In this document: positions 1 to 35,845 of the stretch, one piece after another
Numbering within the stretch: position 1 is the first letter of the stretch
Layout: each line of letters starts with the position of its first letter
Virus record (IMG/VR): IMGVR_UViG_3300017739_000038
Origin: a virus
Length of the DNA stretch: 35,845 bases
Reading direction: 5' to 3' (one strand)
The notes under the pieces: generated by a model
Told to the model about the DNA's origin: nothing
Seen by the model: the letters and a program-made list of their open reading frames with translations, nothing else
The model's database searches: none
Position numbers and translations under genes: made by a program

Positions 1-834
1 AATCCACATAAGTTTCCTATCTTTATTTATTGCAACCTTTATAAGAGTTGTTGGGTCAACAGAGAATCCAAAGTCTTGTCCAAATATATAATCAGCATCA
101 TTATTAAATGGTCCTATCTTCCAATTATTAAATACAACTCCTTCTGCTTTGTCTAACCATCCACCCATTATCTGATGATTATATCTATCTGGTCTTCTGC
201 GTCTAATGTCTTCTAATTGTAAAAGAAAAGAATCTGATAGGTTATCAATGTTATCTTTAAATGTTGTGTGTATATATGTAACATTATCTTTCCAGTTATT
301 AGTTCCTGGATTTACAGCTTTAGCTGCAAAGAATCTTTGATATAACCAATGTTCTTTTGTGGCTGGGTTCAATATCATTATAACCCTATTAGGTTTATTC
401 TTAGCTCTGACTGATTGGTCTATCTTATCAAAATCCTCCTCCTTAGTCATCTCTTCAGCTTCATCAAGTACCCATGTAGTTATGCCATTTATAGACTTCA
501 GAGCTGCTGTCTGATTACCTGCTGATGTACGAATGCCTTTGAATATTATAGAGCTTCCAGTGCTTGTGTTTAAGATTTCATCCTTAGTTATTCTAAAATG
601 CTCTACAATATTATATAATTGTAACTTTTCTAGGAACTCTGGAATAATCGAATTAGAAGCACTTATCATAGTGTACCTAGTGAATAGTATCTTATGACCC
701 TGTTCAAACGTTAGAAAGGCTAAAAAGGTGGTTATAGCGAATGATTTACCACTACCTCTACCTCCAGTAATTACAAAGTACCTTGTATCGTTACCAAGTG
801 AATTATATTTCTGATTCAGAACTGGCTTCTTCAT
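1..834 (-). CDS. terL: terminase large subunit, N-terminal ATPase part. The ORF runs off the window start and continues at 35722->35351 (401 aa when joined).
   Basis: Hand translation from the ATG at 834 gives MKKPVLNQKYNSLGNDTRYFVITGGRGSGKSFAITTFLAF... (Walker A GGRGSGKS) and ...GITTWVLDEAEEM (Walker B). 834 nt is exactly 278 codons, and the frame is continuous with ORF 35351..35731 across the end overlap. Confidence 0.9.
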   Translation of the reverse strand, partial: MKKPVLNQKYNSLGNDTRYFVITGGRGSGKSFAITTFLAFLTFEQGHKILFTRYTMISASNSIIPEFLEKLQLYNIVEHFRITKDEILNTSTGSSIIFKGIRTSAGNQTAALKSINGITTWVLDEAEEMTKEEDFDKIDQSVRAKNKPNRVIMILNPATKEHWLYQRFFAAKAVNPGTNNWKDNVTYIHTTFKDNIDNLSDSFLLQLEDIRRRRPDRYNHQIMGGWLDKAEGVVFNNWKIGPFNNDADYIFGQDFGFSVDPTTLIKVAINKDRKLMWI

Positions 835-1207
835 TGTCAAGCTCTATAGTTTTATTATCATCTTGAGTGCCTGTAAAAAGGTTCTTTATATTTATGTTTA
901 CCTTTTGTTGCTTCTCCTCTGGTGCATCAATAGGTTTTCCATACTTATATTCAAACAAAAGCTTAAGATGTGGAAACGATTGCTTTGCTTGTTCTGCTAA
1001 TGATTCCCAAGCTTCTTCTTCGCTTCCAAATACTTTTGACATTGCGTTGAGTGCATAGATTCCAATTCTGTTTCGCTTGGCATTGTTAATAGCAGCAGAA
1101 GATGTGGGTCGTACAACAGGCACGTTTCTAACGCCCTGTTTTCGTCCATTGTTTCTTCGTCCATCATTTTCTTTGACATATTTATATTGTTTAGGTTTTC
1201 TTCCCAT
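803..1207 (-). CDS. putative terminase small subunit (134 aa)
   Basis: ATG at 1207. The N-terminus is basic (GRKPKQYKY..GRRNNGRKQG). The gene ends 32 nt inside terL, the position normally held by terS. LLFEYKYGKP resembles small-terminase motifs. No firm family call. Confidence 0.45.
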   Translation of the reverse strand: MGRKPKQYKYVKENDGRRNNGRKQGVRNVPVVRPTSSAAINNAKRNRIGIYALNAMSKVFGSEEEAWESLAEQAKQSFPHLKLLFEYKYGKPIDAPEEKQQKVNINIKNLFTGTQDDNKTIELDNEEASSESEI

Positions 1208-1481
1208 GTTTTATATATATATAACTGATAGCATCCCAAATTGCATCATTTATCTCTTTCTTACTATATACTTTTGTTCCCATTTTTTTAATCCCATCCT
1301 TCTCAACAATAATTTTAAATTGATGACAAAGAGGAATACAATCCCCAACAGGCTCCCTATAAATCCTATAACCATTGTCAAGGCACCACCTAGCATAGCT
1401 TTGATTGTATCTATTATTATACGGTGGTAAACTCCATTTTTTTTTATATGCATCAATCTCTTTGGCTGACCTTTTTCTCAT
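1191..1481 (-). CDS. hypothetical protein (96 aa)
   Basis: ATG start. It overlaps both neighbours in the same-strand gene chain. No motif recognised. Confidence 0.55.
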   Translation of the reverse strand: MRKRSAKEIDAYKKKWSLPPYNNRYNQSYARWCLDNGYRIYREPVGDCIPLCHQFKIIVEKDGIKKMGTKVYSKKEINDAIWDAISYIYIKHGKKT

Positions 1482-1851
1482 CTAACATCCTCTCTACTTT
1501 TCTTTTTAACTTAAAGTATTTGTTCTTCCAATATGTATCTGGATTATTTGTATATGATTTATCCAGAACATAATTCTTATAGTCATTCATTATCTCTATG
1601 TAAGTTGCATAAAAATTATCTTTATAGAACTTCATAGTCTCAAAATTCTTTAAGCCTACATTTACTGATGCGTGGTCCTTGTTTACTTCTTTGCCTATTC
1701 TTTCTAAAGTATGATGTGTTAAATCTCTGGCAATTCTGTAGTAAATAACTCTACCATAAACATACTCTCTTTTACGTAACTTACTTCTTACATCTGTATC
1801 TAAATGTCTGTTTACTTTTTCTGCTATTGATTCTAATGTTATCTTATTCAT
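1453..1851 (-). CDS. DnaA domain-IV-like helix-turn-helix DNA-binding protein (132 aa)
   Basis: RKREYVYGRVIYYRIARDLTHHTLERIGKEVNKDHASVNVGLKNFE matches the DnaA C-terminal DNA-binding domain pattern (R..aR.iamYl.r.lt..sl..IG....dHstV). Confidence 0.6.
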   Translation of the reverse strand: MNKITLESIAEKVNRHLDTDVRSKLRKREYVYGRVIYYRIARDLTHHTLERIGKEVNKDHASVNVGLKNFETMKFYKDNFYATYIEIMNDYKNYVLDKSYTNNPDTYWKNKYFKLKRKVERMLDEKKVSQRD

Positions 1852-2876: not shown

Positions 2877-3134
2877 TTATTTACTCTCAAGTAGCTTTTG
2901 CAGGTTAGCTAATGCTCTCCATGCAATCTTAGCATCATGATACAAACCGTCTTCGTCTAATGTACCTGCTTCAAGTAAATGTCTTGCTAGTGCATCTAGC
3001 TCATCATTAGACTTATCTCTATCCCAATGCAAAGGTTGACCAGGATTATGTTGTTCGTTTCCTAAGTAACTGACTTTAGATATATATTTTATAGCCAGAG
3101 GAAAATAATTAAGAACACCTGAATATACAGGCAT
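2877..3134 (-). CDS. DUF5664-like protein (dATP/dGTP pyrophosphohydrolase-like), 85 aa from the ATG
   Basis: FPLAIKYISKVSYLGNEQHNPGQPLHW...ELDALARHLLEAG..DEDGLYHDAKIAWRALANLQKLLE fits the pattern P.a...va.v..G..KY...W...dA..RH....D.e.G..H.a. The track start at 3170 is a TTG that overlaps the upstream TGA. Confidence 0.5.
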   Translation of the reverse strand: MPVYSGVLNYFPLAIKYISKVSYLGNEQHNPGQPLHWDRDKSNDELDALARHLLEAGTLDEDGLYHDAKIAWRALANLQKLLESK

Positions 3135-3166
3135 TTCTTTTCTAATCTGATGTTTGCTTTTCTTTC

Positions 3167-3577
3167 TCAAAATTTACACTTTTTACATTTCCAATACTCT
3201 CCTAGTTTATTTAACGTATAAACTAAATCTACTGATTTGTCAAGCTGTTTCCATTTACCTACTCTATCCCAAATATAAGTTACTTTACATTTATCTAAAG
3301 GTACATCTTTTTTATCATCTTCAAAATCATGAGATACTTTTAGTATTGCAGCATCCTTGCCTAGATTTGCACACCAAGAATTTGCCAGACGCTCCAGGAG
3401 TAATCTTTGACCTGTAGGAATATAAGAATCTTTATACTTGACCTCCATTAAAATTAAATACTTATTGTCAAACTCTAAGACAGCGTCTATGTCAGAGGGA
3501 TGCATCTTACCGTTTTGAACACCAGTAAAATCTAAAACCTGTCTTACTCTATCGCTATTTTTTATTAGGCTTTTCAT
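3167..3577 (-). CDS. hypothetical protein with a possible PD-(D/E)XK nuclease core (136 aa)
   Basis: HPSDIDAVLEFDNKYLILMEVKYK is a D...ExK-like arrangement. ATG at 3577. Confidence 0.35.
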   Translation of the reverse strand: MKSLIKNSDRVRQVLDFTGVQNGKMHPSDIDAVLEFDNKYLILMEVKYKDSYIPTGQRLLLERLANSWCANLGKDAAILKVSHDFEDDKKDVPLDKCKVTYIWDRVGKWKQLDKSVDLVYTLNKLGEYWKCKKCKF

Positions 3578-7881: not shown

Positions 7882-8256
7882 TTAATTAGATTTATTATTT
7901 AGTTTTTCAAATGTTCTCATACCACCAAGTCCCAACATACCTACAAGAACTGTAATTAAATGTTCCATTTGTAAAGCAGGAGGTGCTGTCTCAGGACCAA
8001 CCCACCATATAAATAAATCTCTTAACACAAAATTATATGCAAGTGCAAAACCACATACCCAACCGATAAACGGTCTCCAACCTGCAACAAATATTGTTCT
8101 ATGTTGAGCTTCTATTTTATTTATTTCTCCTTGTAACTCTATAAGCTTCTGAGGGTCTATCTCTTTACCTTTAATAAGCTCTCTTATCTCTAACCCTAAA
8201 CCACTCAAATCATCTTTTTTACTAAGTCCAAGTATTCTTAATATTGTTTTTAACAT
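7882..8256 (-). CDS. putative holin (124 aa)
   Basis: A soluble coiled N-terminal part is followed by hydrophobic segments (TIFVAGWRPFIGWVCGFALAYNFVL, HLITVLVGMLGLGGM). It resembles the 3-TM holin family seen in GTA and phage lysis cassettes. It is adjacent to the endolysin. Confidence 0.5.
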   Translation of the reverse strand: MLKTILRILGLSKKDDLSGLGLEIRELIKGKEIDPQKLIELQGEINKIEAQHRTIFVAGWRPFIGWVCGFALAYNFVLRDLFIWWVGPETAPPALQMEHLITVLVGMLGLGGMRTFEKLNNKSN

Positions 8257-8287
8257 ACTGTGTTTAATGACGTACTATGTTTAAGAT

Positions 8288-15666: not shown

Positions 15667-15695
15667 AAAAAAAAAGAGGACCTATAGTCCCCTCT
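15667..15695 (-). terminator. rho-independent terminator (minus sense)
   Basis: Minus strand reads AGAGGGGAC-TATAG-GTCCTCT (2-nt bulge) followed by a T9-10 run, about 25 nt after the stop of 15720..16268. Confidence 0.7.
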
Positions 15696-15719
15696 TTTAT
15701 GTTTAAGAACCTACCCTGT

Positions 15720-16268
15720 TTAAGAGTTAGTACCTTGTGTTACAGTTACTGTTCCAGTCATTCCTGCGAATGGGTCTGCTGCTGTAGCACCCTCTAAGAA
15801 ATTAGCTGGTTTTGTTTCCATACCAGTAAGCGTTAAAGTATATCCAGATAAATCTCCCATAGCTGCACCAGTTACAATAGTACCACCTGATACATCTGAA
15901 CCGTGTTCTGCACCCATTAGAAATGCGTTGTTATTGTAATCTTGAACAATTACATGAGGTCTTCCGAAAGCTAATAACTTTAATTCTTTGTGGTCTTGAA
16001 CAGTTAATTTATGTAATGTCAAGTTTAAAGTTTGCTCAAAGAATGTTGTACCATTTTCTCTTGAACTGTTGATTGTTTGTTCAAAAGATGAGTTACCTTT
16101 TACTTCGTACTCAAAGACTGTTACCGTACCTAAATCTTCAACTACATCTGTATCTGTTGAGTCATAAGCAATAGTTATATCGCCAAAGTCAGCGAAATAG
16201 ACAGCTTTTATACCACCTACAACATCTTTACAAGGTTCTTTTCTTCCTTTTGTTAAATCACAAGCCAT
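15720..16268 (-). CDS. abundant structural protein, putative major tail (tube) protein (182 aa)
   Basis: The gene is bracketed by two strong terminators and lies directly after the capsid gene. N-terminus is MACDLTKGRKEPCKDVVGGIKAVYFADFGD. The call rests on position and general resemblance only. Confidence 0.4.
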   Translation of the reverse strand: MACDLTKGRKEPCKDVVGGIKAVYFADFGDITIAYDSTDTDVVEDLGTVTVFEYEVKGNSSFEQTINSSRENGTTFFEQTLNLTLHKLTVQDHKELKLLAFGRPHVIVQDYNNNAFLMGAEHGSDVSGGTIVTGAAMGDLSGYTLTLTGMETKPANFLEGATAADPFAGMTGTVTVTQGTNS

Positions 16269-19981: not shown

Positions 19982-22093
19982 TTATCCTAATGATGCTCCT
20001 TCTATTGTACTGCGTTCAAGCTCTTGTGCAGTTGTAACGTCTGACGCCACAACAAAAGCTTTCACTGGTTTGTCATCAGCACCAGCAATAGTTTGAGCAA
20101 GTTGACTTGTTTGTGTTGCACCTACTACGTTGAAGGCTGGAGCTGCCACAGGACTTGACTCTCCTCCAACCCCAATATTTGATGATGGAACTAAATTTGC
20201 TATAGCATTTTTTGCAGCTCTTCTTGCTTTTACTATTGCAGCTATCATTCCAACTATAGATGCACCATAAGCTATTGGACCAGCTATAGCTCCTAAATCT
20301 TTTATAAATCTTGGCAATGTTCCAATACTAGAAGATGTGTCTTTTGCAGCTTCAACTCCAATATCTACTTGAGCTTTTTGTGCAGACATAGTTAATAATT
20401 GTGCGTCTAACAAGGCTCTCTGTTTAAACATTTTTAAATCAAATAGAGCTTTAGCTATACCTAAAGTTTGTTGTAAAGTAAACATATCTCTTTCTGCTTT
20501 GATTTTTCTTTTCTCAGCAGCTATTTCTCTTGACTCTATTTCTTTTAATCTTCTATCTTTTTCTTGTTGTGTTAAAGAGTCGTTTTGCAACACTAAGTCT
20601 TTTTCTCTGTTTATTCTGTCTATGTTTGCTTGATGAAATTCTTGTTGTATATCATTTATGGAAGTTAAAACTGTTGTCATTGAAGAAAATAATTGACCCA
20701 TTGTTTGCTTCATTGTATTTAATTCTTTTATTTGATTTCTTAAATTAAAAAGAATTGTGTCTTGCATTTTTTTAGTAGCATCTTCATTGCTTTTCTGTAA
20801 ATTATCTACTAATCTTTCATAAGTGTCATAAGCATCTTCCATTACATCTGAAACCCTATCTTTTTCTTCTTCAGCTAATTCATCAAATAAGGCATTAACT
20901 TCTAATTGAAATTGTTTTAATATTAACATTCTTGCTTTTGCTTTTTCTTCTTCAGTTCCTTTTGCAAGTTGTATTTCTTTTAAAGCTCTATCTCTTGCAA
21001 CTTCTAACAATTCTTTATCGCTTTGAGCAGTTAGTTTGTTTATAGCGTCTGTTGTTTTCTTTATTATTTTCGCAACATCACTTTCTTTCTTAGTATCTTC
21101 ACCTGTTATTAAAGTTAAATACGGACTATTCATTATAATTTCATCACCTTCTTCTCCTATGTCTTCTACAACAGAATTTGCAATACTTAATTGTGTTTGT
21201 AAAACTGATATTCTATTTTCTAATTGTTGTCTTAATGTTGCAACTGGGTTTCTTCTACCAACAAGGCTAAGGTCTCCTTGAAATATTCCTTTTACCATTG
21301 CTCCACCAGCTTGAAGTGTTCTACCTATTCCTGTTTTTTCATCAAGTTTTTTTAATTCTTCTTCTGCTGTTAATAATTGAAGTGTAATATTTTCTATATT
21401 TTCTTTTGATTGTTTAGCTTCTTCTCTGTCAATTCCTAATAATCTTTCTTTAACTTTAATAAACTCTTCAACTTTACCAATAGTAGGGTCATACCCTTCT
21501 TTTATCAGTGTTTGTAATGCAATTTGATAAGATAAACTATCTTCAGAAAGCCTAGATATTGTGTTTGCTGCTTGTCTTAAATTTGTAATTAAAGTAGAGT
21601 CTTTAGCGAATTGTTTTGCAAAATCATCAAGTGTTCCTCCAAGCTCTCTTGCTTTTAAATCTGCTTTTTCTATTTGTTGTATAATAATTTGAAATACAAG
21701 TATAATACCTAAAGGACCCATTATCTGTTTACCAAGCATTTGAAAAGCTCTACCAACTCTTCTTATACCTGTAACGTTATCATCAACTTTAGAAACAAGA
21801 GTAATAAATAAAGTAGATAATTGAGAAAGGTTGTTAGCCATACCTCTTATACCATAGTTAGAATCTGAAATAGTACGACCAAGCTCTGTTAATGTTGCAC
21901 CAGCAAGACCAGCATTACCAACCATACCTTCTCTGCCAGATAGAGTATTGTTAAACTCTTTGTTTGATGCAGTGGCTCTTTGTAGTTCTGTGTTAAACTT
22001 TTTAACAGACTTTTCTACGCCATTTATTTTACGAATAGCACCTTTTTCTGTAAACTCTATAGAAAATATTAATTTATTAATTTTCTCTGCCAT
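19982..22093 (-). CDS. tail tape measure protein (703 aa)
   Basis: Long coiled-coil-prone sequence. There is a Gly/Ala-rich hydrophobic block near the N-terminus (MVGNAGLAGATLTELG) and another near the C-terminus (GAIAGPIAYGASIVGMIAAIVKARRAAK). Confidence 0.65.
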   Translation of the reverse strand: MAEKINKLIFSIEFTEKGAIRKINGVEKSVKKFNTELQRATASNKEFNNTLSGREGMVGNAGLAGATLTELGRTISDSNYGIRGMANNLSQLSTLFITLVSKVDDNVTGIRRVGRAFQMLGKQIMGPLGIILVFQIIIQQIEKADLKARELGGTLDDFAKQFAKDSTLITNLRQAANTISRLSEDSLSYQIALQTLIKEGYDPTIGKVEEFIKVKERLLGIDREEAKQSKENIENITLQLLTAEEELKKLDEKTGIGRTLQAGGAMVKGIFQGDLSLVGRRNPVATLRQQLENRISVLQTQLSIANSVVEDIGEEGDEIIMNSPYLTLITGEDTKKESDVAKIIKKTTDAINKLTAQSDKELLEVARDRALKEIQLAKGTEEEKAKARMLILKQFQLEVNALFDELAEEEKDRVSDVMEDAYDTYERLVDNLQKSNEDATKKMQDTILFNLRNQIKELNTMKQTMGQLFSSMTTVLTSINDIQQEFHQANIDRINREKDLVLQNDSLTQQEKDRRLKEIESREIAAEKRKIKAERDMFTLQQTLGIAKALFDLKMFKQRALLDAQLLTMSAQKAQVDIGVEAAKDTSSSIGTLPRFIKDLGAIAGPIAYGASIVGMIAAIVKARRAAKNAIANLVPSSNIGVGGESSPVAAPAFNVVGATQTSQLAQTIAGADDKPVKAFVVASDVTTAQELERSTIEGASLG

Positions 22094-22229: not shown

Positions 22230-25174
22230 TATTCGTCTGTTTGGTCTGATGTTACAATTCCACTATCTGCATATATATCTGTTGCATCTACTGTTAGAGT
22301 TCCTGTTACTGGAGGTGTTACTGGTGAATCAGTTGTTAAACAATCTGCATTATATATTAAATTATTTTCTCCACCCATATAACCGTGATTATAACATTCG
22401 TAACTTATAGTGCCAAAATCACCACCTACAGTTATAGTTACCGTACCATAATAATATGTATAAGTGTTTCCATCTAATCCTGATTTAGAACCACCTGAAT
22501 TTGTTCCTGTATATGATAATTTATCTTCTTTACCAAAGTTATGAAAAGCAATAGGATGAGCAGAAGGCACATCATTCATAACATAAGTGCTTTGTCCCAT
22601 TTGATAAGCACCATATTTGTTGTCAAATATATATATGTTACCAGCAGAAGTTACTTCTACTTTTAAATTAAATGTATTGTTGAGACAAGAAAAAGATGTA
22701 ACGTTATAATATCTTTGTAATTCTAAATTAGATTTACCGTTTTGTAAATTAACATCTATTTTATTTATACTGTAAGTTTTATCTGATATTCTTATTTTAT
22801 CTGCCAAAGAATATTTTGATATAAAAGCATTAGTAAGATTTGCTTTTACCTTAACAATTCTTGATTTAACATCAAACAAATGTCTAATGTAATTTAAATA
22901 ATATAGATTAAATAAATTATTAACGTTACTTGATGTGCCGTCAACAGCTCCTCTATACTCATCTATTTCTTCTCCAAAATGATTTGATTGAGAAGTATCT
23001 ATACTTATTGAGTTTAGTGGTATATAATATGTAGTTATGTTACCGTAATAAACAGTCACATTACTTGAGTTTGTATATGTATATGGTATAGCTTCACCTG
23101 ATGTTTCTCTATGAGGATAAAACAACAAGGGTTTACTAAAATGTGGATTATATTTTTCTGCTTGAAAAGATTTGTCACTTGCTGTAGTATTTCTATTTGG
23201 ACTGCTTCTTTTTATACTATAACCTACTTGTATTTTTGTAGCTGCTCCAGCAGCATCAAACAATCTTTCAAATTTCATATGTGCAAAAGGTGGTATGACT
23301 TCATATTTCTTTTCACCTCTTGACTCATTGTATGACCAACTTTCACCTCCCCACTCTATACCATTTGCACTTTTATGTTGCTCTGCAAGTATAGCTTCAG
23401 TATCTTCATATTTAAATTCTATTTTAGAATAAGGCAACATTCTATGAACAGAACTTTGTGATATATCAATTTTGTTTGTTATATCTAATTCTGATTTAGA
23501 TGATGCGTAATAAGAATCATAAGTCATAACTCTTATTCTTTTCATATTAGATTGTGTAGTCGTATATGATGAATTTTCTGTGCCTTCTATAAAACAGACT
23601 AAATTAAACATTTTAAATAATCCAGATAAAAAGTCTGTTATTGACATATCAGGCATATTAAACCTCATATCAAATTGACTTTTGTTTACATTTAAAGCAC
23701 CACCACCTATAATTACATCACTAAAATCTTCACTGTCTCTATCTCCTCTAATTACAAACTTTGCTTCAAATCCAGTCATTGATATTCCTGTAGGTGAAAA
23801 TATAGTAAATTGATAATCACCGTCTTGTTCTACGTTAAAATCAAACTGTTTAGAAACTCCAGCAGAAGGTTGAAATGTTTTTACTATTTCTCCATTTCTT
23901 ATTATTTTTAAACCATATTTGTTAGTGCTATCAGAAGTAGTAGTTGTTAATCTTAATTCTACGTTGTCTATATTAGCTGCTGATACATTTCTAATTATAA
24001 TTGTATCTGCTGATTGTGTGCCTGTCAAACCTGAAGAATTTACAGAATTTATATATAGTATATCATTAGGATTAGTAGCACCTGAATATAAGGATGTGCT
24101 AGAACTTACTATGTTGAATGTGTTAATTGTTAATTCTTTTTCTCCTTGACTAAATTGTGTATTATCTTTTTTGTCTTTATTCAGCCACATATATAAATCA
24201 TAATAATTTTTATTTGTCGCATTTAAGAAATCATTAGAAAATTCTATGTTTGTTAAGTTTGGGTCACTATTTATCTTTTGTTCTATTGCTCTAAGAATTA
24301 AATGTACTCTAATAGCTGGTTTGAGATATTCATACTTTAAACCGTTAGTATTGCTTCCATAATCACTTGCATTATAATATAAATTACCGTCAGATAGTGG
24401 ACCATAAAAATTAGTGTTATTAGAATAATATAATCTTTCTGATGTAGAAATTAGTGGAACAACTATTGGTTGTTCATAAAATAACTTTGTAGTTATTGCA
24501 TTACCAGCAGCAGGTGCTGTGTTAAATATTATATCTCCTGATGTATAAGAATACGAAAAGTTAGATGTAGATACTTCACTTCCTGCATTAAATAATTTAA
24601 AATCTGTATTTAGTTGTGGATATGGACTATATAATATTCTAAATCTTTTCGTAATCCCATCCCCTGTTCCTATGGTAAAAACATCTGAATCTGTATAGTC
24701 TTTTTGTGTAGTTAAGTAATGATAAAAAGATTCACCACCTCCATCAAAATATGTATCATCAATGTTAAATCTCTGTAAGTAATTTAAATCTGTTAGCTTT
24801 AGATTATTAAACAATTCTTTAAGTAATCTAAGACCACCGTAAAAAGTAATTTTATACGTATTAGGTTTATTATATTTAAGAGTAACACTATCTAAAGTTA
24901 TGTATCCATCTTTATATGGTCTATCATTTATTTCTATTCTTGCTGATTTACTTTCTCTTGCGTCAAAACCTCCATCAATAATGTCGTAATTGTAATAATG
25001 TTTAAATACTTTATTGTTTCTTGCAGTAGCAGGTAATGAAAAGTTTCTACTAAAATCAGTAAACAATTTATCAGGAGACCTAAAATCTTTTATAGAACTT
25101 ACTATGTTTATTGAACCATCCTGAAAAACATCAACCTGTTCATTTTCTATATAGAGTTGTATCTTTTGATTCAT
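22229..25174 (-). CDS. large tail / baseplate structural protein with a cupredoxin-like C-terminal module (981 aa)
   Basis: The N-terminus MNQKIQLYIENEQVDVFQDGSINIVSSIKDFRSPDKLFTDFSRNFSLPATARNNKVF is typical of distal-tail or fibre proteins. The C-terminal H...C..H..M pattern is described in findings. Confidence 0.55.
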   Translation of the reverse strand: MNQKIQLYIENEQVDVFQDGSINIVSSIKDFRSPDKLFTDFSRNFSLPATARNNKVFKHYYNYDIIDGGFDARESKSARIEINDRPYKDGYITLDSVTLKYNKPNTYKITFYGGLRLLKELFNNLKLTDLNYLQRFNIDDTYFDGGGESFYHYLTTQKDYTDSDVFTIGTGDGITKRFRILYSPYPQLNTDFKLFNAGSEVSTSNFSYSYTSGDIIFNTAPAAGNAITTKLFYEQPIVVPLISTSERLYYSNNTNFYGPLSDGNLYYNASDYGSNTNGLKYEYLKPAIRVHLILRAIEQKINSDPNLTNIEFSNDFLNATNKNYYDLYMWLNKDKKDNTQFSQGEKELTINTFNIVSSSTSLYSGATNPNDILYINSVNSSGLTGTQSADTIIIRNVSAANIDNVELRLTTTTSDSTNKYGLKIIRNGEIVKTFQPSAGVSKQFDFNVEQDGDYQFTIFSPTGISMTGFEAKFVIRGDRDSEDFSDVIIGGGALNVNKSQFDMRFNMPDMSITDFLSGLFKMFNLVCFIEGTENSSYTTTQSNMKRIRVMTYDSYYASSKSELDITNKIDISQSSVHRMLPYSKIEFKYEDTEAILAEQHKSANGIEWGGESWSYNESRGEKKYEVIPPFAHMKFERLFDAAGAATKIQVGYSIKRSSPNRNTTASDKSFQAEKYNPHFSKPLLFYPHRETSGEAIPYTYTNSSNVTVYYGNITTYYIPLNSISIDTSQSNHFGEEIDEYRGAVDGTSSNVNNLFNLYYLNYIRHLFDVKSRIVKVKANLTNAFISKYSLADKIRISDKTYSINKIDVNLQNGKSNLELQRYYNVTSFSCLNNTFNLKVEVTSAGNIYIFDNKYGAYQMGQSTYVMNDVPSAHPIAFHNFGKEDKLSYTGTNSGGSKSGLDGNTYTYYYGTVTITVGGDFGTISYECYNHGYMGGENNLIYNADCLTTDSPVTPPVTGTLTVDATDIYADSGIVTSDQTDE

Positions 25175-26247
25175 TATCTAATATTGTTGATTCCATCAAA
25201 TGCAAATTCAAATTGAACAGTGTAGTTTACTAATTTATCGTTAAGACTTGTTTTATATGTAAAGCTTGAATCTTTTACAATTACAGGCAATGTTTTGTTG
25301 TTATCTCTAATCCAAATGTTTTCTGATTGAAATAGCTCTCTTATAGTTTCGTTATATTCATCTCTTAAAAACCCTGTATTTAAAGTTAATGTTTTTGTTG
25401 TAAGTACATCTTGAACTACATTAGAAGGTGTGTATGTATTATAAGTAGCTGAACTTGTTGTTGATGTAAGTGTGCTTGTTACATAATTATCTTTTTTTAC
25501 ATTTAAAGCATCTGTTCTTTTTTTGTTAAAGTATATGTCTTGTATTGCACCAAATTTATTTATAAAAGATACTTTGTAATTTGTGTATTTAGTGTTACAA
25601 ACAAAGCTTGGGTATATTGTTTCTTTTGCAGTTGACGTTACAGAAGAATAACCAGTAGCAGAAGTGTTACTAGAAATTATTTCTATTTTACTTGCTTGTA
25701 TTGCTGACTCTACATACTTTATGTAATCTGTTGAGTTTTCTGTAGTAGGAACTTGGTTGTATGGTGTAAATGATTGACTTCCTGCTACACCTTCAACACC
25801 TGTTGCGTCTATTGTGTAATAAATTACATTAGTAACACCGTTTGGTCCAATATATATAGGTATATAATATTTTATGTTTTTTGGTATATATAAGTATTCG
25901 TTTAATATAAGTTTTGATGAACTCAATGAATTATTGTAACCGTCTTCAAAATAAGTATAACCTTTAGTTGCTAAGCCATAAGCTGTCGTTGAAGAAGGTG
26001 TATCTAAATCACTATATGTATTTGTTTTTACATAATACCACCAACAAGTTGTAGATATAGCACTGTAATCATTATCAAAAGTTACATCAATAAAATCTTG
26101 CACTAATTCTGATATTTCAAATCTAACAGTGTTATTAGAGTCAGGATTAGATTTTGTAATTGTATATTGAGCTTGTGTAGGTCTGTTTGTATTAAACTGA
26201 CCAGTCCAACAATATAGGTTTAGTGTAGAACTTGATAGTGTTGCCAT
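25174..26247 (-). CDS. virion structural protein (357 aa)
   Basis: TAATG-coupled between two giant structural genes. The conserved-looking C-terminal part is LNTGFLRDEYNETIRELFQSENIWI...PVIV...YKTSLNDKLVNYTVQFEFAFDGINNIR. Confidence 0.5.
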   Translation of the reverse strand: MATLSSSTLNLYCWTGQFNTNRPTQAQYTITKSNPDSNNTVRFEISELVQDFIDVTFDNDYSAISTTCWWYYVKTNTYSDLDTPSSTTAYGLATKGYTYFEDGYNNSLSSSKLILNEYLYIPKNIKYYIPIYIGPNGVTNVIYYTIDATGVEGVAGSQSFTPYNQVPTTENSTDYIKYVESAIQASKIEIISSNTSATGYSSVTSTAKETIYPSFVCNTKYTNYKVSFINKFGAIQDIYFNKKRTDALNVKKDNYVTSTLTSTTSSATYNTYTPSNVVQDVLTTKTLTLNTGFLRDEYNETIRELFQSENIWIRDNNKTLPVIVKDSSFTYKTSLNDKLVNYTVQFEFAFDGINNIR

Positions 26248-26287: not shown

Positions 26288-29200
26288 TCAATATATATTA
26301 ACACTTGAACAAGAACCAAAGTCATAAACTGCACCTGGTCTAATTCCTGCTGTTGACATTCCAGTATAACCTATTCTAAAATAGTTTCTGTTTTCGTTTA
26401 TTCTAAAATTAGTTTCTGTTGTAGGTGCATATAGTGTACTTAAACTAGGGTCAGAATATAAATATGTGTTATCTCCAAAAGTCCCTACATAATAAACATT
26501 TACATCATAAGTGTTAAGAGTATTACAAGCTGCTGTTGAATTTAATGCAGAAGTTAATGATATTCTCATAACCTTTATACTAGATGGTCTTGTTGGTGTT
26601 ACAGTCGGTGGAACATAATTTGCAGCAGTACAATCTCTATATGTTACTAAATCTTCTACGTTAATAACAGTAGCATCACTTGAAGCTTGAGGGTTAAAAT
26701 AACTTAATCCTTCAAACTTAATAACGTCTGGAAAACTATAGCCACTTGTTCCTGTACCAACAACTAATGTTTGACTTGTATCTGTACATAATTGATACAC
26801 TCTTTTATTAGTAAGCCCAGTAGAAGATGGTGTTGTTCCACCTAAACAAGTTGCACAATCATTAAAAAATTGTGCATTAGAAGGATATTCTCCTGCTGCT
26901 TCATTATAAGCATCATTACCAGAAATAGCTAAACTTTTACAAGTATTTGTAGCATTACCAACTCTAAATACTAGTTCTAATTCAGAGTCAGAAACAATAT
27001 ACTCTAAAGTTCCTTCTGGCACTCCACATAATCTATAAGCACCATAAAACTTATTTGGGTCTATCAGTTGTTCAACTACTTCCTCTGTAGATTCTTCTTC
27101 TATTTGATTTACACAAGTGTCACAATCACCAAAAGGTTGTAATCTTGCTATATAATTTTCTTTTTCAGCACTTTCTACTATATAAGTACCATTAGGCATA
27201 GCAAAAGTGTCTTCATATTGAGTTACTATTGTATAACAACCCTCTCCACCAGTTTGACCAAAATCTTTTAAGTGTAATATTGTATCTACATTATAACTAA
27301 AATCTTTAAACACAAAATATTCAGTTGCACCAGCACTAGTTTGATTAGAACATCTTGTTAATGCTAATTTTTGTATTGTTCCAGAAGTAGGGTCAACAGG
27401 GTCAGTACAACTATTATTGCCACAAGGACCTAAAGTATAAGTTGAAGAACTTCCTGATATTTCTCTAATACTTCCATTAGAACCATCTGTACTATTAGAA
27501 TATGTTCGACTAGTTGTAGCTAGGGTTTGACCAGTTGCATCTTCAAAGAAAGCAGTAGCTAAACAAAATTCATTAGCACCATTTCTATCTGCATATAGAG
27601 TAATAGGCGTACCACTACAAGCTGCTTTACTTGGTAATAATGATGAACTAAATTTTGCAGAATATTGTGTTCTATTTTCCCATATAATTTGTAAATCACT
27701 TGTATCGCTTGTACCACTAACACTACAATTATATATCTTAGTTCCTGTTGTTGTTTGTGTCTCACCTCCACCTCCTGATTCATTTATAACTAATTGTTGA
27801 CTTGTAGCACCACTTATATCAGATAGAGTACCACCTGAATCTGCTTTACTCCATTGATAAGATGGATTTGTTATATTTTGTGATGAAGCTGTTAATACTG
27901 TTCTTTGACTAACGTATGCTTTACCTTGATTGTTACCATCTGATGTTGACATACTTAACGATACAGAAGGAGTTGTGTTTGATTGAGATGTAGTTCCACC
28001 CTCTTGTCCAGTTTCTATACTTTGATTACAAGGCGTAACATCAACTGCAAATCCACCAGCTATATCGTCACCATATATTTTACAATAAAAATCGGCAGGG
28101 TTGCCATCAGAACCTGTTAGTATTATTTTATACCAATTACCTGTTCCACCAAATGGGTTAGATATATGACCAGCACCTGACCTGTTTGTATATAAAGTAG
28201 CACCACTACCATCAACGTTATTACCTACAATAGAACCAACATAGTAAACTGGTATATCCGCAACTAAAGCACAAACATCACTACCATCAGTTCCAGGGTT
28301 GGTTACATAATCAGAAGATACTAACGCTTCGTTAACTTCTGTTTCTATAATGCTACCACCACAATCAGTTGTTGAGTTACAAGTAACAAGGTTTGATAAT
28401 CTACCATCACAAGTAGCACCTATCCTACCTACTTTGACATCACTTCCTACAACAAAATTATAGTATTGTCCAGAGCTTGAGTATGGTATTGTAAGTGCTT
28501 CATTTTTAAATAAGAAAACACCATTTGCTAATTCTGTTCCACCTGTCAAAGACCTAAAATAAGCTGTTTCTCTATTTGTTTCAGCACAAGCACAATTAGG
28601 CGTACCTTTACCAGTAACTGAAACTTGTACTTCTTGTGGAGTTCCAGCAGTTACAGAGTCAAGTATTGTTACAGATTTTACAGAATCGTTTGGTGCTGTA
28701 TTTGTTATGCCGTCTAATGTAATAGTAAATGTTTCACTTCCTTCAGCAGAACCATCTAATTTAGCTTCAAAGTCTAATTCAGCACCATTATTAAAAACTT
28801 GAAATGCTCCAGTTAAACTACCTCTAACTAAATCGGAAGCACTAACACCTGTAATAGTAAAAGGAACCAATGTGTTGTCTGGAACATTTGATGTGTATAA
28901 GCTTATTTTAAAAGGACATCCTTCAATAGTTTCAGTGGTGCTTCTACCCAAAACATACCTTGCAGATTCAGATACTGTACCTGTTAGTGTTGAAGCTAAA
29001 GTTACGTTAGCTTCACCAAATGTACCACTAAAACTAGCAGGAGTTGCTGTAAGTGCTGGACTTGATGTATAATCATTAGCATGAGCCAAAGCTATTGAAA
29101 AACTGTATGAGTCTCCATTTCTACCTTTTACTTCAAATACTTGTGTTTTTGTTTTATTTATTTCAGGTGTTGTTTGTGCTTGTATAGATGATGATTGAGT

Positions 29201-31328: not shown

Positions 31329-31533
31329 ATTATTATAACCATTTATTATTATTATGTAGTAAAGATATAAAAATAAAACACTTTTGCATTTATTAGTTAT
31401 ATTATCGAAGATTAAGAATTACAAACAATTTGAAATCTTCTCTGATAAATAATAAGTTAGGTTTAGGATAATTATATTCTTTTTATTAATTTAGCTTATG
31501 TAAGTATTTTTCATATTATAAAGTTTTGTTTAA

Positions 31534-31560
31534 AGCTCTGATTGTTTTCAGGGCTTTTTT
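31534..31560 (+). terminator. plus-sense rho-independent terminator in an otherwise minus-strand genome
   Basis: AGCTCTGA-ttgttt-TCAGGGCT forms 8 bp with one G-U, followed by a T5-6 run on the plus strand. In minus-sense RNA the wobble becomes a C-A mismatch and there is no U tail. Confidence 0.45.
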
Positions 31561-31794
31561 CATATCTGCTTGAATTTCCTTAAGTGGAGAAACAATACCC
31601 CTACTGACTCTATTTACGTCAATCTCTCATATTATCTCAATACAGAAGATTTAAACCACTGAAAAGAGTTTCAGCAATGCGTAGAATTTAAAAGTATTTT
31701 TAATCCCTTAAACCTCCTGTATTTTGATAATCAGCCAAATAGAAAATAATTTAATTTTATAATTGACTGGCTAAATATAAACTAAACTAATAAT

Positions 31795-32589: not shown

Positions 32590-32723
32590 ATCGTATTTAA
32601 TTTAGTTTTATAATTTGTTTTTGCATTAACAGAATAAAAAGTCATTTTCTTTTCTGTTGTTGTTGCTTGTAAATTTAGCTTCTTTTGAAGCTTCTTATTG
32701 TTTAGTATATATTTAATCTTCAT
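32586..32723 (-). CDS. small basic hypothetical protein (45 aa)
   Basis: Hand translation: MKIKYILNNKKLQKKLNLQATTTEKKMTFYSVNAKTNYKTKLNTI. ATGA overlap with the next gene. It is the first ORF after the repeat-rich intergenic region. Confidence 0.4.
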   Translation of the reverse strand: MKIKYILNNKKLQKKLNLQATTTEKKMTFYSVNAKTNYKTKLNTI

Positions 32724-32772
32724 ATTGTTTAATTTGATATTGCTAAACTAGATATTTAACCAATACAAAAGT

Positions 32773-32801
32773 GTTAAAGAAAAGTTAAAGAAATGTTAAA
32801 G
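32773..32801. repeat. three GTTAAAG units at exact 11-bp phasing (CTTTAAC on the minus strand)
   Basis: gttaaag occurs at 32773, 32784 and 32795, about 50-80 nt upstream (minus sense) of the ATG at 32723. Confidence 0.85.
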
Positions 32802-32922: not shown

Positions 32923-32941
32923 TTAACAAAACTTTAACATT
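32923..32941 (+). repeat. 19-bp direct repeat, copy 1 (ttaacaaaactttaacatt)
   Basis: Identical to 33043..33061. It contains the TTAAC/CTTTAAC half-sites 11 bp apart, in the orientation opposite to the 32773 array. Confidence 0.9.
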
Positions 32942-33042
32942 ATTTACTTTGATTTGATAAATCTATTTATTAATCTTGCAACTTTTTCACACAAAACAGA
33001 CCATGCAAAATAATTTTATTACTTCCAAATATTTTGGGTACT

Positions 33043-33061
33043 TTAACAAAACTTTAACATT
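33043..33061 (+). repeat. 19-bp direct repeat, copy 2
   Basis: Identical to 32923..32941. Here the full CTTTAAC-AAAA-CTTTAAC lies at 33041-33058. Confidence 0.9.
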
Positions 33062-33083
33062 TGGGTATTTTGCAGGATTTCAA

Positions 33084-33318
33084 CCTACTGCGTTTAAGAA
33101 CCTACTGCGTTTAATGATTAACCCTACTGCGTTTAAGAAAACGCAACAGGTAGAAGCAAACTATTAAAACCAATCATGAAAAATGAAAAATCTCCTACCT
33201 ACTGCGTTTAAGAGTAATAAAAAAAGCAGATGGACGAATCAGGCATTACGTTTTTATATCGTCTTTCTAATGTTAGTCCTTTCATACTAACTGCCTGACC
33301 ACCTACTATGTTTAAGAA
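33084..33318 (+). repeat. cluster of five direct copies of the 17-nt motif CCTACTGCGTTTAAKRA
   Basis: The copies are 33084-33100, 33101-33117, 33123-33139, 33198-33214 (all with an exact 15-nt core) and 33302-33318 (cctactatgtttaagaa, 2 mismatches; it overlaps the stop of 33312..33554). Confidence 0.9.
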
Positions 33319-33554
33319 TTAACTTCTTTACTTATTATCTCACAAAACTCATCAAATATCTTATTAGATATGTCTTCGTACTCTTCAGCACTTAAAGTTC
33401 TGTCTGAATCCAAGTCAAACAAAGTCATCCTATCATCCTTAGAAGTGCTTAACTTATAAATTGTATAATCAACAAAGTCAAGAGAATCTAAGAAGTCAGA
33501 AGCCCAAGAATAAATAATATGCTTCTTTTTGTATTCTATGTCTTTTTTATTCAT
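33312..33554 (-). CDS. hypothetical acidic protein (80 aa from the ATG)
   Basis: MNKKDIEYKKKHIIYSWASDFLDSLDF... The track start at 33590 is a TTG. The ATG at 33554 lies 4 nt after the stop of the 39-aa ORF. Confidence 0.5.
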   Translation of the reverse strand: MNKKDIEYKKKHIIYSWASDFLDSLDFVDYTIYKLSTSKDDRMTLFDLDSDRTLSAEEYEDISNKIFDEFCEIISKEVNS

Positions 33555-33558
33555 ATTA

Positions 33559-33678
33559 TTATGCTTTATTATATTTATGCCATTTATCAATTATAGGTTC
33601 GTCTGTGCTATAATCAATATAAAAAACATAATCATCTATTTCAACGTACATTACGTGTTTTCTAATATCTAATTTCAT
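33559..33678 (-). CDS. small hypothetical protein (39 aa)
   Basis: Hand translation: MKLDIRKHVMYVEIDDYVFYIDYSTDEPIIDKWHKYNKA. TAATG junction with the 446-aa gene. Confidence 0.4.
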   Translation of the reverse strand: MKLDIRKHVMYVEIDDYVFYIDYSTDEPIIDKWHKYNKA

Positions 33679-35018
33679 TACCAAGCTGTTAAGGTTAACT
33701 CTGAAATATCATAGGAATCCAGAACTTCTGTTGGAAACTTCCATTTCCAGTTATCAACTTTATAGCTTTGATTTAGATTATCATAAGCAATCTTATCAAA
33801 ATTAACCTCCTCATGAATACTAAAATCTAATATACCAAACTCTAAAACATTTTCTTGATATCCCTGTAAAAAGTCTAAATACAATCTAGGGTCAACTAAC
33901 TTATCAATGTACATTGGAACATATATTGCTTTAGCGTCTTTGATTTTACCAGTCATTAACTTATCATCAGATATATAAAACATTTTTTTTATCCAGATTC
34001 TAAGCTTTACCTTACTTTCTAATCTTTTCAATACATCAATTTGATTTACTCCATGAATAGTATCTGTATTGTTAGGATAAAACTTTCTACACTTATTCAT
34101 CTTAGAAGTATCATATCCCCACTCAATCATCTTTTCAGTAGTATCTGTATTTAAAGGTTTGATTATAGTAGAATCTACATTGTTATATAACCATTGCCTA
34201 TAATTAATCCTCCTTTGTCTCTTCAGTTCATTAAGCTCATCTCTAAGCTCTGAAGTCTCTGGAAAATATGTTACATTAACTTTGTCATGAAACTCATTTG
34301 TCATAACCATAAAATTAGAAGTGTTGAGTAAAAGTCTTTGATATAGAGCAAAATCATTTGCAATATTTATATAGTCAATTTTGTTATACTCATCATTATA
34401 ATGCGTATGAAATCTTCTACCAAGCTCTAATTTATAAACATAGTATTTTCCTTTATTACTATCTTCAGAATCATGTGTAAAATAAACTTGATATTTAATA
34501 AAAGCTCCCAAATCTTCTGAAAGCTCTCTAATATCTCTGTATATGTTTTTAGCAAAAGTTTCAGACATACCACAGATATTTTTATCAAGATACCTAACTC
34601 TTATTTTACTCTCATAAGTATCTTTATCAAAAAGATAAAAATATAAGTGAAATGAATCTTGAGAAAAGCCATTAGTATAAAAATCCTCAAAGATTTCATA
34701 GGTTATTTCACTACCAGATTTTGCTTCAATTATTGGTAGTAACTCTTCTCTTTCAGAATCTGAAAAATTAACAACTACATTTCTAATAGAATCATATTCT
34801 AAAATATCTGGACACCTCCAGAACTTTTTGAACCTAGTATCCCATACTAAAACATTATCCTCTAAAGTGTTTAACTCACTTAAATAAGCTTTATAAAGTT
34901 TTTTAATATCCTTTTTTTGCCTATTTAATTCTAGCTTATTAATCTTATTAATGCTAGTTTCTGCGTTAGATATTTGTTTATCTAACTCTTTGTATTTGTG
35001 TTCGTAATTATTATTCAT
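33678..35018 (-). CDS. large ORFan protein (446 aa from the ATG)
   Basis: A long open frame in a stop-rich AT genome. No motif recognised. The track start at 35039 is a TTG lying inside a TAGGTTTG box. The first ATG at 35018 gives MNNNYEHKYKELDK... Confidence 0.7.
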   Translation of the reverse strand: MNNNYEHKYKELDKQISNAETSINKINKLELNRQKKDIKKLYKAYLSELNTLEDNVLVWDTRFKKFWRCPDILEYDSIRNVVVNFSDSEREELLPIIEAKSGSEITYEIFEDFYTNGFSQDSFHLYFYLFDKDTYESKIRVRYLDKNICGMSETFAKNIYRDIRELSEDLGAFIKYQVYFTHDSEDSNKGKYYVYKLELGRRFHTHYNDEYNKIDYINIANDFALYQRLLLNTSNFMVMTNEFHDKVNVTYFPETSELRDELNELKRQRRINYRQWLYNNVDSTIIKPLNTDTTEKMIEWGYDTSKMNKCRKFYPNNTDTIHGVNQIDVLKRLESKVKLRIWIKKMFYISDDKLMTGKIKDAKAIYVPMYIDKLVDPRLYLDFLQGYQENVLEFGILDFSIHEEVNFDKIAYDNLNQSYKVDNWKWKFPTEVLDSYDISELTLTAW

Positions 35019-35036
35019 ATTATAAAAATTATGGTG

Positions 35037-35044
35037 CAAACCTA
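35037..35044 (-). promoter_or_regulatory. candidate Bacteroidota-type -7 promoter box (TAGGTTTG)
   Basis: Exact TAnnTTTG on the minus strand, 19 nt upstream of the ATG at 35018, with no clear TTTG -33 partner. The 8-mer is expected tens of times by chance in this genome. Confidence 0.25.
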
Positions 35045-35077
35045 AGTAAAAAGTTTATAACATTAATAATAAATTAT

Positions 35078-35099
35078 GTTAAAATTTTGTTAAAATTTC
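35078..35099. repeat. tandem 11-bp repeat GTTAAAATTT(T/C) x2
   Basis: gttaaaatttt is at 35078-35088 and gttaaaatttc at 35089-35099. It has the same TTTAAC half-site, 11-bp phase and orientation as the 32773 array, and lies upstream of the 446-aa gene. Confidence 0.85.
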
Positions 35100-35137: not shown

Positions 35138-35350
35138 CCTACTGCGTTTAAGAGTCAGAACTAAACAAACCTTACTGCGTTTAATGACTAAGGAAGCTTG
35201 GATGGAAATGTACTTAATTATCTGTTTAGCTTTTGCTTTTGTTACACTAACATTTTTATTTGTGTATGCAATCACATTTCTTTATGTTGAAGTAGCCCAC
35301 CCTATACCTATTGCGTTTAATGATTATATAATACCTACTGCGTTTAATGA
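35138..35350 (+). repeat. cluster of four direct copies of the 17-nt motif in a 2+2 arrangement
   Basis: The copies are 35138-35154 (exact), 35171-35187 (cttactgcgtttaatga), 35307-35323 (cctattgcgtttaatga) and 35334-35350 (exact). The last copy abuts the terL TAG stop at 35351-35353. Confidence 0.9.
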
Positions 35351-35845
35351 CTACCTTATTACATAAACGCCTTTATTTGCGTTGGCGAGGAAATACTGTG
35401 CTGAGTATCGAAGTGCGTCTAACTGATGGTTCCATTTATCAACAGGTTTTTCGTTCCTCTCATGCCAAACATAATTATTTAGCTCTTTTATCAGCTCTAC
35501 ACTATCAGCATCAATTATTAAATCATAGTCCTGAACCAGAGCAATCCCTGTCAGAATAGACCCACTGCGTTTAATGGTCGGCTTTAGGTTACAGTATTCT
35601 TGTAGCTCTGAGATAAGTCTAGGTTCTGCATTGTCACATACAATTATACTATCTTCTGCATAACGCCTATTGAGTTCTCCTATCTCTTTAGTAGATAAAC
35701 CTGGTTTAGCATACATAGTTTTAATCCACATAAGTTTCCTATCTTTATTTATTGCAACCTTTATAAGAGTTGTTGGGTCAACAGAGAATCCAAAGTCTTG
35801 TCCAAATATATAATCAGCATCATTATTAAATGGTCCTATCTTCCA
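35351..35845 (-). CDS. terL: terminase large subunit, C-terminal nuclease part. 35351..35722 is unique; 35723..35845 duplicates bases 1..123.
   Basis: ...IVCDNAEPRLISELQEYCNLKPTIKRSGSILTGIALVQDYDLIIDADSVELIKELNNYVWHE...DALRYS. It is in frame with 1..834 across the overlap. Confidence 0.9.
   Translation of the reverse strand, partial: WKIGPFNNDADYIFGQDFGFSVDPTTLIKVAINKDRKLMWIKTMYAKPGLSTKEIGELNRRYAEDSIIVCDNAEPRLISELQEYCNLKPTIKRSGSILTGIALVQDYDLIIDADSVELIKELNNYVWHERNEKPVDKWNHQLDALRYSAQYFLANANKGVYVIR
35723..35845. repeat. 123-bp end overlap identical to bases 1..123 (circular or permuted assembly closure)
   Basis: Direct comparison: aatccacataagtttcctatc...tggtcctatcttcca is present at both ends. 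Confidence 0.95.

Follow-up and report, generated by a model that had tools for sequence, protein, structure and literature searches.

A strand-specific 17-nt repeat at gene ends in marine Flavobacteriia phages is a candidate transcription-boundary element

The genome of an uncultured virus (IMG/VR record IMGVR_UViG_3300017739_000038) contains several direct copies of a 17-nt motif, which raises the question of what these repeats do and what reads them. The whole 35,845-nt stretch, referred to here as the window, was analyzed. On its + strand, exact copies of CCTACTGCGTTTAAGA begin at 33084, 33123, and 33198 and copies with two mismatches at 33101 and 33302; these five, all on the + strand and spaced by 17, 22, 75, and 104 nt, form cluster A. 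All five had been listed in a preliminary description of the locus together with the spacings of 17 and 22, and they were recovered here. A second group, cluster B, has copies starting at 35138, 35171, 35307, 35334, and 35561, on the same strand as those of cluster A, as the preliminary description had stated for the cluster close to terL. The window therefore holds ten strong copies (five at 33084-33318 and five at 35138-35576). When up to three mismatches were allowed, 15 matches were obtained compared with 0.19 expected by chance, and none of 100 shuffled sequences reached 15. The copies are not chance occurrences, as had been proposed. The earlier count of nine strong copies confined to intergenic DNA was right in that strong repeats exist, but one copy (35561) lies inside terL. 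Both of the clusters described earlier are real, but degenerate copies are also present at 8254-8286, at the holin ATG, and at 15694-15725, next to a terminator.

Bases 1-123 of the window are identical to bases 35723-35845, so that the true genome length is approximately 35.7 kb. The window is thus a complete circular phage genome of this size, and the phage genome is probably circularly permuted. The terL gene is a - strand gene that crosses the circular junction (832..1 joined to 35722..35351), with its stop codon at 35351-35353. The gene between clusters A and B (33678..35039, 453 aa), which had been taken for terL, has no family match, and small ORFs are found at this place in relatives. 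Since essentially every real gene of the window is on the - strand, the relevant reading of the motif is the reverse complement of the one described earlier, namely, 5'-TTCTTAAACGCAGTAGG-3' as read along the - strand of the window, which is the coding strand; the strand used in the preliminary description was the wrong one. The features of the window that bear on the motif are listed in Table 1.

Table 1. Motif copies and adjacent features in the window. Strand is given relative to the window; boxes and promoters are putative.
Feature	Position	Strand	Remark
Cluster A, first copy in the direction of transcription	33302..33318	-	Variant TTCTTAAACATAGTAGG; TAA is the stop codon of ORF 33312..33590
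Cluster A, copy with exact core	33198..33214	-	Motif match
Cluster A, three back-to-back copies (+ strand starts 33123, 33101, 33084)	33084..33139	-	Motif match
Inverted partial copy	33139..33153	-	12-bp hairpin with copy 33123, including G.U pairs; no U-run
Cluster B1, two copies directly after the terL stop	35307..35350	-	Copies start at 35307 and 35334
Cluster B2, two copies that precede the promoter cassette of the 453-aa gene	35138..35187	-	Copies start at 35138 and 35171
Copy within terL, codons I-K-R-S-G, ~220 nt before the stop	35561..35576	-	Motif match
Degenerate copy TCTTAAACAGGGTAGG with the stop codon of the capsid-side gene 15720..16268, then a partial copy	15680..15725	-	
Two degenerate copies 17 nt apart	8254..8286	-	Second copy ends in the holin ATG (holin 7882..8256)
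Two TTTAACA repeats, 11-bp period, ~32 nt upstream of the -7 box	35076..35094	-	Downstream of cluster B
Putative Bacteroidetes-type -7 box TAGGTTTG	35039..35046	-	~20 nt before the ATG at 35018
Three phased TTTAAC(A/T) repeats	32775..32800	-	Downstream of cluster A
Putative -7-like box TAGTTTAG	32743-32750	-	Followed by the ATG at 32723
Two phased TTAACA pairs in the opposite orientation	32923-32941, 33043-33061	+	
Putative -7-like box TAATCTTG	32972-32979	+	Follows the 32923-32941 pair; presumed promoter

Among cultured phages, Nonlabens (Persicivirga) phage P12024S is closest to the window phage, with 33% identity in the portal protein, and from this relationship the host is assigned to the Flavobacteriaceae. 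P12024S (L121) does not contain the 17-nt motif; a different recurrent motif precedes its ATGs. This element, AAAACAAAA-N-TTYCGTTAATAnnnnATG, recurs directly before start codons (139-181, 2991-3033, 5372-5414, 21245-21285, 23945-23970, 25185-25205, and 26762-26804), and from its sequence (AAC ... CGTT) it looks like an ECF-sigma-type promoter for the sigma-70-region-2 protein gp33. Two further observations were made in the window. The product of gene 2877..3170 (- strand) is small, contains the N-terminal domain found in dATP/dGTP diphosphohydrolases (PF18909), and is among the best conserved proteins of the group (median identity of 68%); no PurZ-like gene was seen. A non-coding stretch of 466 nt (31329-31794) has a terminator-like hairpin on the + (antisense) strand at 31532-31566 and no Rfam hit, and it may encode a small antisense RNA.

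Two details of cluster A that had been pointed out earlier were confirmed. The copy at 33302 overlaps the stop codon of a - strand ORF, which is 33312..33590 in our calls, and the TAA of this stop belongs to the TTAA of the motif. The inverted half copy at 33139-33153 exists and pairs with copy 33123, with a folding energy of -14.5 kcal/mol (z = -4.1) for the - strand RNA and -10.6 for the + strand. At the capsid-side pair, the 3' end of the partial copy runs into an intrinsic terminator hairpin with a U-run (15704-15680). Where units are 17 nt apart, as in 33084-33139, each contains TAA and TAG in one frame, and three such units therefore give stops in all three sense frames; the units of the two other motif types described below likewise retain TAA or TAG. 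A CRISPR-like array was rejected because the spacings are irregular (17-104 nt), and pairing of adjacent copies via their GGG and CCC ends was rejected because just 17 of 61 copies of the CC variant follow a GGG copy.

Antisense ORFs are present at both clusters. The + strand ORF 33004..33167 (54 aa) reads through three copies, which gives PTAFK repeats, and it has its own TTAACA pair and -7-like box (32923-32979); it may be a gene or only an antisense transcript. Between B1 and B2, a small + strand ORF (35115/35202..35366) encodes a hydrophobic single-helix peptide, and at the corresponding place L148 and L157, which carry different motif types (I and II, respectively), have non-homologous but equally hydrophobic antisense ORFs of 29-32 aa. 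The peptide could be a small membrane protein or a toxin-like peptide.

Relatives were retrieved from IMG/VR by an exact search for two core copies 5-35 nt apart. Tandem core pairs were found in more than 120 contigs, which is a lower bound, and many of these contigs were 31-37 kb long. Among the matches listed and the window, 581 exact-core copies were counted, and within every locus all of them were on one strand. This strand carried 697 kb of ORFs of at least 100 aa, compared with 32 kb on the other strand (same matches and window; ORFs in relatives were called mechanically). The copies thus have the orientation that is typical of the stoperators discussed below, with 581 of 581 on the coding strand and none antisense in the loci found via TerL. 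In the matches listed and the window, 83% of the exact-core copies were intergenic against a non-coding background of 18%. Exact-core copies begin 0-60 nt past the preceding stop codon, and none is less than 40 nt from the next ATG. Conservation covers the block a-Y-Y-c-TTAAACGCAGT-R-G-G-t, and a second box was not seen in its vicinity; a variant with ATA for GCA at its center occurs 60 times in the relatives.

Between one and six copies make up an array; the most frequent spacings are 17 and 21 nt, and 19, 23, and 25 nt are also common. Single copies make up 72 of the 212 unique clusters, and most copies sit in arrays of 2-6. The position of the arrays, for which conservation in relatives had been proposed as a check, is conserved: the first array is always at the terL stop, with its first copy at +7 from this stop in nearly all relatives, and further arrays follow 1.2-3 kb or more away and elsewhere in the genome. 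Copies were also found within replication genes of the relatives, and the copy number differs between near-identical genomes.

The loci found via TerL were sorted by motif type. Type I has the motif of the window, TTCTTAAACGCAGTAGG. Type II genomes, whose TerL is 82-84% identical, have no type I copies; in place of these, TTCAACATAATGGGG or TTCAATACGATGGGG arrays are found both immediately at the terL stop and ~2.2 kb downstream, and a repeat search also gave a weaker (~80%) match at the corresponding site inside terL. Type III genomes (TerL 57-61% identical) have units of AATTCAATAGGG or CAATTCAAAAGGGGG. The type II and III arrays are directly after the terL stop and 1.7-2.5 kb downstream, and two genomes (L155 and L182) are intermediate or of mixed type. 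As units of types II and III occupy matching sites, the position and architecture are conserved while the sequence drifts in concert; the unit has kept its place as its sequence co-evolved.

The copy inside terL allowed the level of selection to be seen. Its codons ATT AAA CGC AGT GGG were invariant in all 19 of the 19 unique terL 3' ends that encode I-K-R-S-G; at the equally conserved residues beside the copy, synonymous sites vary freely. In relatives with I-K-R-K-G, the Arg codon was AGA, CGC, AGG, or CGT and the Ile codon was ATA or ATT. Selection at the terL copy acts on the nucleic acid.

No known element was recovered. Rfam gave no hit at the gathering score or at E values up to 1, no tRNA or tmRNA was found, and neither the region nor an idealized array had DNA similarity to phage records in GenBank and INPHARED. 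In the literature, the motif string appeared only in unrelated primers, and no published description was found. A scan of genome collections gave 17 matches, with the full unit only in L131, a Flavobacteriaceae MAG (CALTAJ010000002.1, 1.13-Mb contig) with two perfect tandem 17-mers (3541-3576) in a bacterial chromosome. The neighboring genes encode an excisionase-like HTH protein and a tyrosine integrase, and the vicinity is free of phage genes; the locus may represent an integrative element or a satellite that makes use of the phage's signal, or else a leftover of recombination. Matches in L045 (2021-2096, a GVMAG contig) and L002 (5821-5906) were excluded from the family because their tandem repeats include the 11-nt core but not the rest of the unit; their contexts are unrelated (GC-rich or giant virus), and we regard them as chance pattern matches.

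Many relatives have 2-4 TTAACA repeats with an 11-bp period downstream of the arrays, followed by a TAnnTTTG box ~30 nt past the repeats and an ATG ~20 nt past the box. We take TAnnTTTG to be the Bacteroidetes -7 promoter consensus, and the boxes in the window were assigned on this assumption. The TTAACA repeats presumably resemble OmpR/PhoB-type sites, such as the TT(A/T/C)ACA repeats of B. subtilis PhoP and the cyanobacterial Pho boxes. Of 165 arrays, 76 had a phased TTAACR pair within 300 nt on the downstream side and none had one on the upstream side; the window has four phased TTAACA pairs, each of them adjoining cluster A or B. At the place of the TTAACA repeats, TGTAYATAAGT repeats are present in type II relatives. 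In addition, a palindrome, TTATTTAGA-N4-TTCTAAATAA, was seen between arrays and promoters in L003, L018, L025, L029, L032, L048, and others, and its form suggests a typical dimeric operator.

This arrangement raises the possibility that the arrays are duplex-DNA activator or operator sites for the promoter just downstream, with no stopping role for the upstream unit; a regulator on the arrays would then turn the two TTAACA/-7-box promoters on or off. The one-sided placement of the cassettes in relatives, and their restriction in the window to clusters A and B, agree with this explanation. A monomer that has two DNA-binding domains would also be suited to a 17-bp asymmetric site with two conserved ends, and looping of the DNA could make use of the in-gene copy located 220 bp upstream. 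However, the distance from the array to the -7 box is highly variable (~60 to >200 nt), the capsid-side pair has a terminator and no cassette, and the holin pair ends in the ATG. Where there is a terminator, it is situated between the array and the promoter and has the last copy as one of its arms, which ties the array to the upstream unit. We therefore consider activator sites possible but rather unlikely. The array itself is not the core promoter, because the -7 box is a distinct element located between array and ATG, and exact-core copies never come within 40 nt of the ATG.

The link with terminators was examined across the arrays. In 23 of the 192 unique arrays, the last copy served as the 5' arm of a hairpin with a T-run behind it, compared with a mean of 4.2 and a maximum of 9 in shuffled sequences; such arms occur in all three motif types and in most of the type III loci examined. 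Terminator-like hairpins followed 19 of 197 arrays and preceded 5, and a strong terminator precedes the array in a few relatives (L073 and L093). Only approximately 12% of the arrays overall have a recognizable terminator; clusters A and B of the window have no recognizable one, and the window's own case is at 15725-15680. The usual order is the stop codon, the array, sometimes a terminator, the TTAACA repeats, the -7 box, and the next gene. This order of stop, array, terminator, and promoter connects the array with the end of the transcription unit that precedes it.

Origin iterons, which the preliminary description had offered along with partition sites, operator sites, and a repeated RNA element, were considered next to handcuffing or copy-control sites for a phage initiator. 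The 17-nt unit, its head-to-tail arrangement, the spacing of 17-23 nt, and the multiple clusters match classical iterons (RK2 17-mers, P1 incC/incA, and lambda ori), and genes for a DnaB-like AAA_25 helicase and a DnaA-domain-IV-like protein (1453..1851) are present in the phage. The first 9 nt of the unit (TTAAACGCA) share 6 of 9 positions with what we take to be the DnaA box (TTATCCACA), which was also counted in favor of iterons. P1 incC/incA, RK2 oriV, and P4 ori/crr are examples of such sites in more than one cluster. Unlike iterons, the units here have no adjacent initiator gene and occur at gene ends and in genes, co-oriented and linked to terminators and promoters. No match to a Rep-type initiator was obtained with Pfam or PHROGs in the scanned ORFs, including the neighbors of the clusters, and ParA and ParB were also not found; the genes between the clusters are variable cargo. 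An origin or partition role fits poorly because the copies are dispersed (in terL, after the capsid-side gene, and at the holin start), an origin would not need strict co-orientation with genes at dispersed sites, and the GC skew of the window shows no switch. Origin and copy-control functions are thus improbable; of the options offered earlier, operator sites and a repeated RNA element survive.

The DnaA-domain-IV-like protein had also been proposed as a binding candidate, together with the TerS-like protein. Candidate readers were sought among the proteins encoded within 10 kb upstream of terL and were compared across the motif types, and neither these two nor the other phage proteins compared tracked the type. 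The DnaA-domain-IV-like proteins are 25-40% identical and have differing recognition helices among genomes with an identical motif, and some type I proteins closely resemble that of type II; this weakens the candidate and also counts against iterons. A different repeat follows one subgroup of these proteins: tandem 9-bp GACAnnnnn repeats (GACAAACTT and GACACATCC) lie between the array and the TTAACA repeats in L008, L009, L015, L060, L086, L096, L099, and L114, that is, in 8 of 17 loci with the K(N/D)HAT-type DnaA-IV helix and in 0 of 95 others. From this distribution, the GACAnnnnn repeats may be the real sites of the DnaA-domain-IV-like protein.

A TerS that binds the repeats would make the arrays around the terL end a pac region where packaging starts. 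Oligomeric TerS proteins typically bind repeated sites, the first array is at the terL stop in all three types, type I has a further copy inside terL, and the Flavobacteriaceae island with an integrase carries two perfect copies, as would be possible for a satellite that hijacks a helper signal. Against this, the structured core of TerS does not follow the motif type, which weakens TerS as a candidate reader. The TerS core of L172 (type III) is close to that of the window, that of L194 (type I) is nearer to the type II variant than to the window's, and type I TerS proteins form at least seven clusters at 70% identity. Known pac sites lie in or before terS, and the genomes here have several arrays, some at least 3 kb from terL, with pairs in the structural and lysis regions. 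A role in packaging is accordingly weakened and ranks as very unlikely.

Across type I loci, the median identities were 41% for TerS, 38% for gp96, and 31% for the DnaA-domain-IV-like protein, and the 14-nt core was unchanged. A core that stays constant over such divergent proteins (31-41% identical) is awkward for any phage-encoded reader. The gene of gp96 (1191..1481) was present in 75 of 76 type I loci and in 0 of 7 type II loci, which are close kin of each other, so that these presence and absence counts are not independent events. The case for gp96 was weakened by its absence from type I L194 and some type III loci. Its structural model is weak (pLDDT 65), with likeness to dsRBD, SRP9/14, and T7 gp1.2 only at E values of 0.04 or worse. 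A 189-aa helix-turn-helix protein with a weak Fis/TyrR-type HTH match does not discriminate between the types, and no homologues of the L131 island proteins were found in the phage loci; neither is supported as the reader. No repressor with a helix-turn-helix and a stoperator domain was found in the ORFs tested (Pfam, PHROGs, and PDB sequence search). The earlier proposal of a dedicated sequence-specific reader nevertheless holds and is strengthened by the comparative data; candidates for the putative reader include host factors, RNAs, and phage proteins whose genes lie elsewhere.

It was also considered that no dedicated reader exists and that the units are short homologies or remnants of mobile cassettes, homogenized via the Erf and exonuclease that the window phage has, which mark junctions where exchange is tolerated. 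The arrays flank the most variable cargo, the copy number changes among near-identical genomes, mixed genomes (L155 and L182) exist, and no protein tracks the motif type. Such remnants would hardly be expected to show absolute strand specificity that includes the in-gene copies, a coding copy frozen at synonymous sites across diverged terL genes, or precise placement relative to stop codons, terminators, and promoters. Of the explanations weighed, recombination remnants are the least probable. A comparable arrangement is found in the PeSL cassettes of T4-type phages, in which an early promoter and a stem-loop flank variable ORFs. These are likewise repeated regulatory cassettes that bracket hypervariable small genes and probably favor module shuffling, but they consist of a promoter and a hairpin, not of 17-mer arrays.

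The closest documented precedent for the reading of boundaries comes from Cluster A mycobacteriophages, whose stoperators are asymmetric 13-bp sites in the direction of transcription; under a monomeric repressor they halt elongation, and this function is lost on inversion (PMC9283540). The units here resemble the stoperators of L5 gp71 and TipsytheTRex in being asymmetric sites of 13-17 bp, present many times per genome and mostly in short intergenic gaps, with an orientation that strictly follows transcription and a motif that changes among related phages (PMC9283540). In contrast to stoperators, which are single sites, the units here form tandem arrays of 2-6 copies at 17-21 nt, and some serve as terminator arms. 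The window phage, which has a Bacteroidetes host, also differs in having no repressor with an HTH and a stoperator domain, and no integrase or other sign of lysogeny was found in its tested ORFs (Pfam, PHROGs, and PDB sequence search).

Repeated signals on the sense strand are also known from RNA. The (G/U)AG repeats bound by TRAP, the UAG repeats bound by HutP, and lambda nut are upstream of or overlap a terminator arm, and translation initiation is in addition inhibited by TRAP, a parallel to the copy over the holin ATG. With 15-21 nt, the units here are longer than triplets, the arrays are at the 3' ends of transcription units and not in leaders, and most of them have no detectable terminator. 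Lambda nut consists of boxA and a boxB hairpin in the RNA downstream of an early promoter, whereas the unit here has no conserved hairpin and the arrays are upstream of the cassettes. Against what we take to be the boxA consensus, the unit matches at 7 of 11 positions. A possible likeness of GCAGTAG to the GCGGTAG of the ops element was considered, as were possible likenesses to phage nick-site consensus sequences and to segments of 16S rRNA.

The copies are strand specific, selection acts on their nucleotides, and they stand in a recurrent order with stop codons, terminators, and promoters across relatives. The absolute co-orientation, the placement at stop codons, the terminator link, the downstream promoter cassette, and the holin and capsid-side pairs argue for a directional boundary process, which would most simply be transcriptional read-through. 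Our favored explanation, which we hold tentatively and at somewhat less than even confidence, is an orientation-dependent cis-acting transcription-boundary element, with a DNA version and an RNA version that are about equally probable. The unit would mark the downstream end of transcription units in this family of marine Flavobacteriia phages. A trans-acting factor would read the copies on the sense strand, either as oriented duplex DNA or as nascent RNA, and would control the amount of read-through by RNA polymerase between successive modules; translation may also be affected at the holin start codon, which a copy overlaps.

The RNA version of the boundary element is favored by the reuse of the last copy as a terminator arm, which a bound factor would mask, and by the copy over the holin ATG. 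In a specific form of this version, the arrays would be a nascent-RNA switch: a factor of the phage or the host would bind the tandem units and mask the last copy, and with it the terminator arm, to permit late read-through, and the holin copies would time lysis. This specific form is a rather doubtful possibility. If true, it would represent antitermination by repeat arrays combined with translation control in Bacteroidetes phages, with the motif 'alleles' I-III evolving in concert.

Marine Bacteroidetes are of major importance for ocean carbon turnover, and the scheduling of gene expression in their phages is hardly known. The element provides a recognizable landmark of unit boundaries and adjacent promoters in hundreds of uncultured genomes, and its motif offers a handle for finding the regulator. 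The three co-evolving sequence types at fixed positions constitute a natural experiment on how the specificity of a cis-element and its reader changes, and, if the element acts in RNA, it would represent a new antitermination logic.
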